Virus record (IMG/VR): IMGVR_UViG_2713896798_000017
DNA length: 46,614 bases
Reading direction: 5' to 3' (one strand)
DNA from: a virus
Lineage: Duplodnaviria; Heunggongvirae; Uroviricota; Caudoviricetes
Position 1 is the stretch's first letter, and each line of letters begins with the position of its first letter. Positions 15,001-18,000 of this stretch are shown here, in pieces. A program made the position numbers.

Positions 15001-18000
15001 TGGTTCCCAGGTTGATTTAATTTTTCGTTTTCTTGATCACGCTTTTGCAACCGGCGTGCTCGGGTAAAAGAGGTTACTGATGCGTATAGAGTTTGTTTTG
15101 CCTTACCCGCCGACGGTGAACACCTACTGGCGACGTCGTGGCAGCACATATTTTGTATCAAAAGCCGGTGAGCGTTATCGCCGGGCTGTGGTGCTTATTG
15201 TTCGCCAGCAGCGGCTGAAATTAAGCCTGTCCGGACGGCTGGCAATAAAAATTATTGCAGAACCACCGGATAAGCGCCGCCGTGACCTGGACAACATTCT
15301 GAAAGCACCGCTGGATGCGCTGACGCATGCGGAAGTGCTCATTGATGACGAGCAGTTTGATGAAATCAATATTGTGCGCGGTCAGCCTGTGCCAGGTGGA
15401 CGGCTGGGCGTGAAGATTTACGAAATCAGAGGTGGTAACGATGGCGCGTGATATCCAGATGGTTCTTGAGCGATGGGGGGCATGGGCAGCAAATAATCAT
15501 GAAGATGTAACATGGCCCTCGATAGCTGCTGGTTTTAAAGGATTAATCCCGACTAAAGTGAAATCACGTCCTCAGTGTTCTGATGATGACGCCATGATAA
15601 TTTGTGGTTGTATGGCACGATTAAACAAGAATAATCAGTATTTGCACGATTTGTTGGTGGATTATTACGTAGGTGGAATGACATTTATGGCTCTTGCACG
15701 TAAGCATAGATGTTCTGATGGGCTTATTGGTAAAAGGCTTTATAAAGCGGAAGGTATTATTGAAGGAATGCTTATGGCTCTGAATGTCCGGTTAGATATG
15801 GATATGCGGTAGGGATATATAGTGATGAGGGTTATGTTTTCTGTGTTTATAATTAACATGTTTATTTTTTGATGGTCATGTATTGTGGAAGGTAGATAAA
15901 ATGTTGCCTGGTGAATTGAAAATATTGATAATCAATCTTCATCATTAAATAAAAGGAGTGCTTATGTGGATTGTGTTAGTACTGTCACTGTCAACTCTCA
16001 GTTGGCATAAGGTAGTGGCTTTTTCATTGTTGACGGTGTCTGTTGTCCTGGCTGTGCTTAATGATATTATTGATTGGTCGGTGTTATTTTTTGTTGCTAC
16101 AATCGTTTTTTTTATTATTTTGAAGTTCAACTGGAAATATAACGCCTGGGCTAAATCTATATATGAAGTTGGCATAGTTTTATCAGCCATAGCATTATCT
16201 TTCCATCTATGGCCAGGGTTTCACAATCCTGTAGTGCTAAATTCTGTTACTGTTGGCCCTCAGAGTACTCCCTATACAATGTATTTTAATTTTGATAAAG
16301 CGCTGGTGCCATTTTTGTTAGTCCTGTGTACATCTTCTTTGTTTAAAAAAGAAGTAAAATCAGAAGTGTCTTTGTGGAAGTGGGGGGCTCTGTCGCTCTC
16401 TGTTCCTCTTATCCTGTTTTTGGCTGTTTTTTTTGGTGGATTAAAGCCAGAGATTCATTTTCCTGAGTGGTTGCCAGAGTTTATATTGGCTAATTTGTTT
16501 TTTGTGTCTCTGGCAGAGGAATCATTATTTAGAGGGTATATTCAATCACGGCTATCAGAAGTAACGTCTCCATTGGTTGCATTAATTGTGGCGGCTTTGT
16601 TGTTTGGTTTTTATCACTATTCAGGTGGTGCTTTACTTGTATTATTTGCCACGTTATCTGGTGTTGTGTATGGATTGTCATGGATGTGGAGTGGGCGTTT
16701 GTGGGTTGCCACCCTTTTCCATTTTGGTTTGAATCTGTGTCACTTGTTATTCTTTACCTATCCATTTTTAAAACATAATTGATTTTTTCTATGGTTTTAA
16801 ATTTATAAGACTGAAAAATAGCAGGACGTGACATTTGCATGAAAAATATGCACGGCAAAGCATTTACGTACGTAAAAAATCAGGTATGCTGTTAAGAGTG
16901 GTTATTTCGCCGCATAGCTTGACCCCGCCTCTGAGCGGGTTTTTTGTGCCCGCAAAGTAGCGCAGTGCGTTAAATGTGCTGGTAGTTATTAATACAGGTC
17001 TTTCAGCTTGCTGGCTTTTTCGGCAAGAGTTATTGGTGTGTCACGTTAACCGGAAAGGGTAAAAAGACATGCTGAAACAGCAGGATATGACAGAAACCGC
17101 CAGAGTTGTGTTTGATGAATTAAGCGTCACCGAACCGGCGACAGTCGGGGAGATTGCGCAGAATACTTACCTTTCACGCGAACGCTGCCAGTTAATACTG
17201 ACCCAGCTTGTTATGGCGGGTCTGGCAGACTATCAGTGCGGTTGTTACAGACGCCTTCAGTCCTGAAGGCTTTTTTATTTGTGGTAAATGGGCGGCTGGT
17301 GGGTGTTAGCGGCACCTGTCAGTCCTTTGCTTATGTGTTGATGATAATTTATAGACTGGCCCCCTGAATCTCCAGACAACCAATATCACTTAAATAAGTG
17401 ATAGTCTTAATACTAGTTTTTAGACTAGTCATTGGAGAACAGATGATTGATGTCTTAGGGCCGGAGAAACGCAGACGGCGTACTACACAGGAAAAGATCG
17501 CTATCGTTCAGCAGAGCTTTGAACCGGGAATGACGGTCTCCCTTGTTGCCCGGCAACATGGTGTGGCAGCCAGCCAGCTATTTCTCTGGCGTAAGCAATA
17601 CCAGGAGGGAAGTCTTACTGCTGTGGCTGCCGGAGAACAGGTCGTTCCTGCCTCTGAACTTGCTGCCGCCATGAAGCAGATTAAAGAACTCCAGCGTCTG
17701 CTCGGCAAAAAAACGATGGAAAATGAACTCCTTAAAGAAGCCGTTGAATATGGGCGAGCAAAAAAGTGGATAGCGCACGCGCCCTTATTGCCCGGGGATG
17801 GGGAGTAAGCTTCGTCAGCCGTTGTCTCCGGGTGTCGCGTGCGCAGTTGCACGTCATTCTCAGACGAGCCGATGACTGGAAGGACGGCCGCCGCAGCCGT
17901 CACACGGATGATACGGATGTGCTTCGCCGTATACACCATGTTATCGGAGAGCTACCCACATATGGTTATCGTCGGGTATGGGCGCTGCTTCGCAGACAAA

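Follow-up and report, generated by a model that had tools for sequence, protein, structure and literature searches.

The window analysed here (the whole stretch of 46,614 nt of IMG/VR virus record IMGVR_UViG_2713896798_000017, Caudoviricetes) is a lambdoid prophage of the Sp4/CP-933M type, in which the late antiterminator gene Q is followed by a gene for a CPBP-family (Rce1-like) membrane protein and, beyond it, by the best candidate for the late promoter pR'. We lean, modestly, towards the explanation that this gene is cargo held between Q and pR', that it encodes an Rce1-type protease with a protective role at the cell envelope, and that the 65-aa open reading frame (ORF) further downstream, orf65, is a separate module. 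The more interesting result is the architecture itself: judged by comparison of related loci, prophages with a QuuD-type Q appear to hold a cargo slot between Q and the late promoter, known defence systems being among its occupants. The CPBP gene has been annotated as ECs1085 since the Sakai genome.

The candidate late promoter unit lies downstream of the CPBP gene

The Q protein of the window (126 aa) is of the small Q21-family type (E=4.9e-52 to its Pfam family); it is related to the Q of phage 21 (PDB 6P18, E=6.9e-8) and 86% identical to QuuD of the Escherichia coli K-12 prophage DLP12. Downstream of the CPBP gene stands a compact unit, consisting of a candidate pR' with the -35 element TTTACG (16863-16868), a 16-bp spacer and the -10 element TATGCT (16885-16890), a conserved 14-nt leader core, GTTAAGAGTGGTTA (16891-16904), and a tR'-like intrinsic terminator, CCCGCCTCTGAGCGGG plus T6 (16924-16945; fold z = -1.3). 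The palindrome TTTACGTACGTAAA overlaps the -35 element and the spacer and is a possible Q-binding element. The unit lies 3' of variable DNA in the window and in L005, L006, L007, L008 and L014 (L numbers denote the loci compared), and the K-12 prophage DLP12 shows the order quuD, nmpC on the opposite strand, the same pR'/tR'-type unit, and essD as the first lysis gene. The leader core was found in 80 IMG/VR loci, about 50 of which have a Q gene at most 4 kb upstream; this Q is of the small Q21-family type in all of the latter, never of the QuuQ/SfV type and never Q21 itself.

In phage 1720a-02 (L002), whose Q is 48% identical, the leader and the terminator are kept and the -35/spacer part differs, as would be expected with a divergent Q if this part held the Q-binding element. 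Phages with other Q types (SfV, Stx2_EH1910) have a different promoter and leader joined to the same terminator. The annotated pR' of phage 21 is of equally compact design with its terminator within about 50 nt, and it carries a Q-binding element between -35 and -10 and a pause element just past the start (bioRxiv 651190). From these comparisons, the unit at 16863-16945 is the best candidate for the late promoter and terminator of this Q lineage. Because it lies 3' of the CPBP stop codon (16782), the CPBP gene would not be driven by pR' in this lineage, and the start of late transcription, placed at this gene by the first-pass annotation, would have to be moved beyond it. The same annotation had credited the CPBP gene and orf65 with a terminator each. 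Both hairpins exist; the first of them belongs to the conserved late leader, so it is no mark of autonomy of the CPBP gene.

Assignment of the leader unit to the small RNAs HnrS or StxS was dropped, as neither the lengths nor the prophage locations published for them agree with it and no Rfam family is found there. In L006 (3396-3500 and 4290-4360), and also in L007, two tandem promoter-leader-terminator units accompany a 128-aa Q variant: a strong TTGACC-17-TATATT promoter with a terminator directly 3' of Q, and the usual unit 3' of an ORF6N-domain cargo gene.

A variable cargo slot between Q and the proposed pR'

Across the IMG/VR loci, the distance from the Q stop codon to the leader core falls into classes of 41-60 bp (nine loci), about 630, 804, 862, 1081 (CPBP), 1092 (ORF6N), 1102, 1194, about 1550-1580, about 1675-1720, 2270, 2465 and 2937 bp, and the shortest class also occurs in phage 1720a-02. 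Since the CPBP gene is present between sites that are adjacent in relatives (1081 bp in CPBP-type loci versus 41-60 bp), it is cargo, i.e., a moron, in a variable slot between Q and the proposed pR'. Its G+C content deviates from that of the window (38% vs 51%), in line with the earlier reading of an AT-rich accessory gene next to Q in a lambdoid prophage; the adjoining Q gene is also low, at 42%. Promoter-like sites are present upstream, and the sole downstream terminator is the tR'-like one.

Most of the slot cargo is AT-rich, and most is encoded on the strand opposite to Q. An NmpC-type porin is the commonest cargo in the IMG/VR sample (13 loci; PF00267, E=1e-124), and the CPBP gene was found in two loci (L109, L165). 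Kiwa occupies the slot in L113 (KwaA, E=1.9e-83; KwaB, E=2.3e-150). Other loci carry an OLD/Gabija/HEC-04-like ATPase with a C5 methyltransferase, the candidates PDC-M68A (HNH), PDC-S42 and PDC-M53A, a weak NYN match, two lipoproteins, the ORF6N protein and several unannotated two- or three-gene sets. Roughly half of the cargo types are unannotated.

Among the unannotated cassettes, L105 and L170 encode a 308-aa protein with a membrane protein of 177-182 aa, L119 a 313-aa protein with a 153-aa membrane protein, L107 an NA37-like protein of 391 aa with one of 403 aa, L161 three genes, L144 a 280-aa and L110 a 214-aa protein. All of these are AT-rich and, except for the single plus-strand ORF of L110, on the opposite strand; a soluble protein of ~300 aa paired with a small multi-pass membrane protein recurs in several. 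PADLOC gave no match for the proteins of L105, L107 and L144, for L110 or for the larger L119 protein, and a single weak one for L161 (PDC-S54, E=7e-6). The uncharacterised cassettes are candidates for new defence systems.

The CPBP protein is equipped for catalysis

The ORF was listed as 15958-16782 with a GTG start. The ATG at 15964 is the better start because it has an AGGAG ribosome-binding site (6 nt upstream) and is also used by the Prokaryotic Genome Annotation Pipeline. The product is identical with ECs1085 of the O157 Sakai prophage Sp4 (WP_000265267.1), annotated as 'CAAX amino terminal protease family'. The PF02517 (Rce1-like) model matches residues 171-260 at 70.6 bits (cut-off 22.4, E=1.4e-19), and the motifs noted by the first-pass annotation are in place as E185-E186-x3-R190 (EExxxR), F214-x3-H218 (FxxxH) and H253-x3-N257 (HxxxN). 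In an alignment of 46 homologs, E185, E186, R190, F214, H218 and H253 are invariant and N257 is conserved in at least 90%; the N-terminal half carries further invariant motifs specific to the subfamily, among them PGFxN and MYxNxDKAxxPF. The NCBIfam models for myxosortase and ABC-permease-CPBP proteins gave partial matches below their equivalog cut-offs, and these assignments were dropped.

The AlphaFold 2 (AF2) model is of high confidence (predicted local distance difference test, pLDDT, 95.8; predicted template modelling score, pTM, 0.92) and contains 8-9 helices. Against the PDB, Foldseek's two best matches were Rce1 (4cad) and SpdC (6u0o), with probabilities of 0.93-0.99, E values of 0.02-0.07 and template modelling (TM) scores of 0.37-0.51, the remaining ones being noise. 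A sequence search of the PDB returned nothing at E<=1, and a library of viral structures yielded only remote CPBP folds, such as gp60 of Bacillus phage G and the CAAX proteases of giant viruses. The PHROG families matched have no assigned function. The gene encodes a catalytically equipped glutamic intramembrane endopeptidase of the Rce1 type, the activity being predicted from motifs and fold.

Distribution, selection and origin

The Q-CPBP junction is present in 572 of 5426 complete E. coli genomes (547 records at >=99% identity), including O157:H7, O55:H7, O26, O103, O111 and O145, and the sequence is 99-100% identical across O157, O26, O103, O111 and O145. Divergent alleles also follow a small Q, with identities of 84% (Stx1d prophage, L008), 62% (L014) and 59% (L219), and Q diverges along with them. 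Between the alleles of 84% and 62% identity, the ratio of nonsynonymous to synonymous substitution rates (dN/dS) is 0.13-0.25, and the most distant alleles are close to saturation at synonymous sites; by this measure, the prophage alleles are under purifying selection. In L008 (E. coli C311, NZ_CP062204.1, 3006-6364), the order is Q, the 84% allele, a degenerate leader unit, an opposite-strand ORF and stx1dAB.

A second context was found in two Logan assemblies (L220, ERR6560149; L221, SRR13497658), where a 55%-identical CPBP gene follows a lambda-type Q (PF03589). In L220 it lies 3' of a candidate pR' (TTGATT-N18-TATGCT) and a strong terminator (4831-4856) and directly 5' of the holin gene; E. 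coli relatives of this Q-holin region have no CPBP gene. The CPBP gene has thus been recruited independently next to Q twice, beside unrelated Q families and on either side of the candidate pR'. Its rarity in phages, as claimed in the first-pass annotation, was borne out: tblastn with the protein and with its 55% relative had no match among the 50,697 sequenced phage records of INPHARED, and a DNA search of phage records over the locus matched only the rusA/Q part and the orf65 region.

The nearest homologs outside prophages are 44-61% identical over the full length or nearly so, and come from Serratia, Photorhabdus, Xenorhabdus, Proteus, Enterobacter, Cedecea, Hafnia and others. Their neighbourhoods were sampled in 80 species-representative loci. 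No Q, RusA or DUF968 gene and no phage neighbours were found near the homolog in any of the 80; a modF-like ABC ATPase gene lies upstream in 52, gpmA downstream in 45, and galETK downstream in others. Most homologs keep this modF-gpmA/gal position instead of the patchy distribution of an island gene, one Salmonella homolog being in a different, non-phage island. The first-pass annotation had named a widespread housekeeping gene with no phenotype on phage challenge, or the lack of a match to the family's hidden Markov model, as reasons to abandon its proposal; the match is present, and the former applies in part, as the nearest relatives are syntenic chromosomal genes. The prophage lineage would have captured the gene long ago, probably from this chromosomal enterobacterial family (modF-CPBP-gpmA/gal), and since then the gene and Q may have moved as a single AT-rich module, with purifying selection acting on the gene.

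The locus modABC-modE-modF-CPBP-gpmA (or galETKM) recurs in many genera of the Enterobacterales (L017-L096, L010-L013). A functional modF-CPBP operon was considered for these relatives and set aside, since the gap between the two genes is roughly 100-400 bp in most chromosomal loci (median ORF offsets). Copies with 49-51% identity in two Helicobacter sp. genomes (L019, L064) suggest horizontal transfer or contamination. Two CPBP clusters (P0079, P0095) have >400 members labelled Pseudomonas aeruginosa (third-party annotation, TPA), which are about 60% identical over about 75% of the length and possibly misassigned or mosaic.

orf65 is a separate module

The first ORF past tR', orf65, encodes a small protein resembling helix-turn-helix proteins, belongs to phrog_331 and has 295 relatives, named 'TrmB family' by NCBI. 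It is a widespread late-leader gene that is independent of the CPBP gene, and is not its partner, because the terminator-orf65-terminator module occurs elsewhere without CPBP, another gene takes its place in L008, and it is frameshifted in Sakai. The module follows markedly different Q types in Stx2a phages (273-aa QuuQ-type Q), SfV, phiP27 and 1720a-02, and the gene after the CPBP allele of the Stx1d prophage L008 differs from orf65. In Sakai, the orf65 homolog ECs1086 (L016, 13344-13583) is frameshifted near its 3' end and annotated as 79 aa, with ECs1085 intact. The two-gene cassette of the first-pass annotation does not survive these comparisons. Its suggestion of a winged helix stays possible: the PF01978 (TrmB) match reaches 17.8 bits, below the cut-off of 25.6, the AF2 model (pLDDT 72.7) shows a three-helix bundle with a fourth helix and no wing, and the fold matches are winged-helix regulators, all of them weak (E>0.6). 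The terminator overlapping its 3' end has a fold z of -3.08.

Genomic context of the locus

The features of the window are listed in Table 1. About 2 kb around the CPBP locus are 100% identical to E. coli O26:H11 11368 and to many other genomes of enterohaemorrhagic E. coli (EHEC). In O26:H11 11368, the copy of the prophage adjoins yccA, and the equivalent in O157:H7 Sakai is prophage Sp4. An AraC-type gene occupies the place of the DNA methylase of many Stx2 phages. In Shiga toxin (Stx) phages, stx is located just 3' of the tRNA block; the stx-equivalent position is further on, after the tRNAs, and not at the CPBP gene as had been assumed.

Table 1. Features of the 46,614-nt window around and outside the CPBP locus.
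Feature	Position	Strand	Basis or remark
int	1-1020	-	
Exonuclease, then DicF RNA, repressor region, replication genes			Order 3' of int
DicF RNA	4435-4486	-	Rfam, 77 bits, above gathering score
hok/sok module	about 13246-13570		
sok antitoxin RNA of hok/sok	13246-13420	+	Rfam, 107 bits, above gathering score
DUF968 protein	14018-15067		
RusA	15080-15451		
Antiterminator Q	15432-15812	+	PF06530
Q-CPBP intergenic region	15813-15963	+	
CPBP/Rce1-like gene (272 aa)	15964-16782	+	
Candidate pR'	16863-16890	+	Consensus; conservation after small Q in relatives
Late leader and tR'-like terminator	16891-16945	+	
orf65 (65 aa)	17069-17266	+	
Intrinsic terminator overlapping orf65 3' end	17253-17276	+	
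IS2 insertion (InsC/InsD ORFs)	17352-18682	+	Interrupts the locus; not part of the feature
AraC-family regulator (ECs1087 homolog)	18740-19453	+	
Three tRNA genes (ileZ/argN/argO type)	19482-19731	+	
STnc100 small RNA	19808-19998	+	Rfam, 138 bits, above gathering score; just 3' of tRNAs
616-aa ORF	20221-22071		SASA-family esterase per reference annotation; then lysis and structural genes

The insertion sequence IS2 is flanked by a 5-bp target duplication, ATTTA (17347-17351 and 18683-18687), and this copy is not in the O26:H11 11368 or Sakai references. It sits just past the orf65 terminator, 52 bp 5' of the AraC-type regulator gene, where it breaks the promoter-like sequence TTGATG ... GCTATAAT of the reference, and it lies between pR' and the regulator, the tRNAs and all late genes. 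A weak isrK-like Rfam match was seen at 13579-13660 (27 bits, below threshold).

Expression and possible function

As the CPBP gene is upstream of pR' and on the same strand as Q, and the hairpin/T-run scan found no terminator between the two, it would be part of the delayed-early pR operon and be transcribed along with Q on induction. Transcription in the lysogen would probably start at one or more sigma-70 promoters of the gene itself. One candidate, TTGCCT-17-GATAAT (15904-15932), is conserved in allele L008 as TTGCCA-17-GATAAT, and the second has a perfect TATAAT at 15848-15853; both are consensus matches only. Transcription would end at tR' unless antiterminated. On a microarray of uninduced EDL933, Z1346 gave high log2 signals of 11.9-13.0, a weak hint of strong expression, as the probe set is a cross-hybridising one (_x_at) and Z1346 is equated with ECs1085 by gene order. 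The predicted fold of the intergenic RNA (15814-15963), at -32 kcal/mol, is slightly more stable than those of shuffled sequences (z = -2.3), and the stop codon of Q in allele L014 is overlapped by a perfect palindrome, ATATTGCATGCAATAT.

The protein is expected in the inner membrane, where it may cleave or bind a membrane or envelope protein or peptide and so alter the lysogen's envelope such that prophage and host are protected together, for example by phage exclusion or by immunity to membrane-targeting peptides. Such an envelope-acting protective function, exclusion or immunity, is proposed with low to moderate confidence from the chemistry of the family and the company in the slot (porin, Kiwa, lipoproteins). 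From the location only, a protective or exclusion role is plausible, and the presence of Kiwa and further defence candidates at this site in related prophages lends the defence idea indirect support. We regard as doubtful a bolder version, in which the protein protects by intramembrane proteolysis, a mechanism unlike that of known defence systems, as one cargo of an undescribed hotspot between the QuuD-type Q and the late promoter. The enzyme would then cleave or trap an inner-membrane component needed by incoming phages or by membrane-targeting peptides, or a phage protein at DNA entry.

Several observations weigh against the favoured explanation of a protective cargo upstream of pR'. Regarding the regulatory part, the candidate pR' shows no direct-repeat element for Q binding comparable to ATTGAGCA/AATGAGCA of phage 21; the architecture is not uniform, since L006 and L007 have a second promoter-terminator unit right after Q; the position relative to pR' is not fixed in the gene family, the L220 copy lying downstream of a candidate pR'/tR'; and in AT-rich DNA of this kind, 9 promoter matches were found against 4.8±2.1 expected. 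Regarding function, PADLOC gave no family match for the CPBP protein at E<=1, the chromosomal relatives look housekeeping-like, and 'Abi', the name behind the first-pass annotation's link to abortive infection, goes back to an old mis-annotation of this Pfam family (PMC3578759). Moreover, those slot cargos that are known defence systems run antiparallel to Q, unlike the CPBP gene, which has the direction of Q; this direction is equally compatible with a lytic role. No functional study of ECs1085 or of the slot was found in the literature, and the paper of Zhang et al. on pR' does not mention the CPBP gene.

This orientation leads to the alternative of a helper of the lytic cycle, expressed delayed early with Q or late, which would block superinfection, inactivate a membrane-bound host defence effector or tune holin-mediated lysis. 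The CPBP gene shares the orientation of Q with no intervening terminator, and in two lineages with unrelated Q genes it is found on the late strand between Q and the lysis genes; it also differs in strand from most of the lysogen-type defence cargos of the slot. Nevertheless, the slot is dispensable, many relatives having 41-60 bp in its place, and the gene is absent from the sequenced phage records and not phage-linked in its chromosomal relatives, so that we consider such a role unlikely. The cassette of the first-pass annotation, in which CPBP and orf65 form a two-gene defence or abortive-infection system as the first late unit under pR'/Q at the position of stx, is very unlikely. The adjacency of CPBP to Q, the terminator after each ORF, the L220 copy between a candidate pR'/tR' and the holin gene, and the L008 allele between Q and stx1d speak for it; however, the conserved pR'-type unit of this Q lineage is 3' of the CPBP gene, orf65 is found without CPBP after unrelated Q types, replaced in L008 and frameshifted in Sakai, PADLOC has no match, and 'Abi' is a misnomer.

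Quite improbable, too, is a non-catalytic scaffold or regulator that modulates a membrane hydrolase or sensor kinase in the manner of SpdC/LyrA of Staphylococcus aureus or Abx1 of group B Streptococcus (GBS). It is true that SpdC (6u0o) gives the highest TM-score among the solved structures and that several bacterial CPBP proteins act without proteolysis (PMC7387801; PMC3578759), but SpdC and LnsB are devoid of the catalytic residues, whose Glu, Arg and His are invariant here and accompanied by the well-conserved N257. Least probable of all is a neutral passenger, a captured housekeeping-type gene kept by linkage to Q in a largely defective prophage. The syntenic chromosomal relatives would agree with it, as would the insertion sequence elements in Sp4-type prophages and in the window; against it stand a dN/dS held low over deep divergence, an intact ORF with motifs kept in divergent alleles, and recruitment next to two unrelated Q families.

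Implications

The CPBP gene is present in about a tenth of the complete E. coli genomes, mainly in the major EHEC serogroups. For the regulatory map of these prophages, a late promoter separated from Q by cargo means that genes adjacent to Q are not automatically Q-controlled late genes, and this affects the prediction of the expression of stx-like cargo. The gap between Q and pR' behaves like a hotspot for cargo and defence (Kiwa, OLD-like ATPases, PDC candidates), and could be mined for new defence systems if the doubtful proteolytic version of the protective role were true. Being catalytically equipped, under purifying selection and encoded next to Q genes of two unrelated families, the CPBP protein offers a tractable candidate for a new function in lysogenic conversion or exclusion.

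Comparison with known systems

By E-value, the top Foldseek match is Rce1 of Methanococcus maripaludis (PDB 4CAD), which shares with the CPBP protein the Pfam family, the three motifs and a multi-pass helical membrane fold. Identity is only about 16% and the TM-score about 0.37-0.39; residues 1-136 of the CPBP protein, with the subfamily motifs, are outside the Pfam domain, the gene is prophage-borne, and prenylated CAAX substrates are not expected in E. coli. SpdC/LyrA of S. aureus (6U0O, the SagB-SpdC complex; TMq 0.48, TMt 0.51, probability 0.99) is likewise an envelope-associated bacterial CPBP protein, with 14% identity. SpdC has no catalytic residues and is the partner of a glucosaminidase, LnsB being non-catalytic as well (PMC7387801), whereas these residues are conserved in the protein described here. 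The 'Abi' bacteriocin immunity proteins of Gram-positive bacteria are protective membrane CPBP proteins of the same Pfam family; less than 1% of CPBP family members are in bacteriocin loci (PMC3578759). The CPBP gene of the window has neither a bacteriocin or small peptide gene nor an exporter beside it, its neighbours being Q, the late leader, orf65, IS2 and the AraC-type gene. The closest relatives outside the prophages of E. coli and Shigella, the chromosomal CPBP genes of the Enterobacterales (modF-CPBP-gpmA/gal), have the same subfamily motifs and differ in their conserved chromosomal site without phage genes.

As cargo, the CPBP gene resembles stx in being an accessory gene between Q and the lysis cassette, with orf65, a methylase or AraC-type gene, the ileZ-argN-argO tRNAs and nanS-p as shared neighbours. 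In contrast, stx, located 3' of pR'/tR' and the tRNAs, requires antitermination by Q (PMC7547250), and the CPBP gene is 5' of the candidate pR'. The nmpC/lc porin genes of DLP12 and phage PA-2 occupy the same slot, with the 86% identical QuuD-type Q before them and the same unit between them and the lysis genes, and are AT-rich envelope cargo as well; they encode outer-membrane proteins on the opposite strand, whereas the CPBP gene encodes a predicted inner-membrane enzyme on the strand of Q. This porin has a role in receptor change and in exclusion, as described for phage PA-2.

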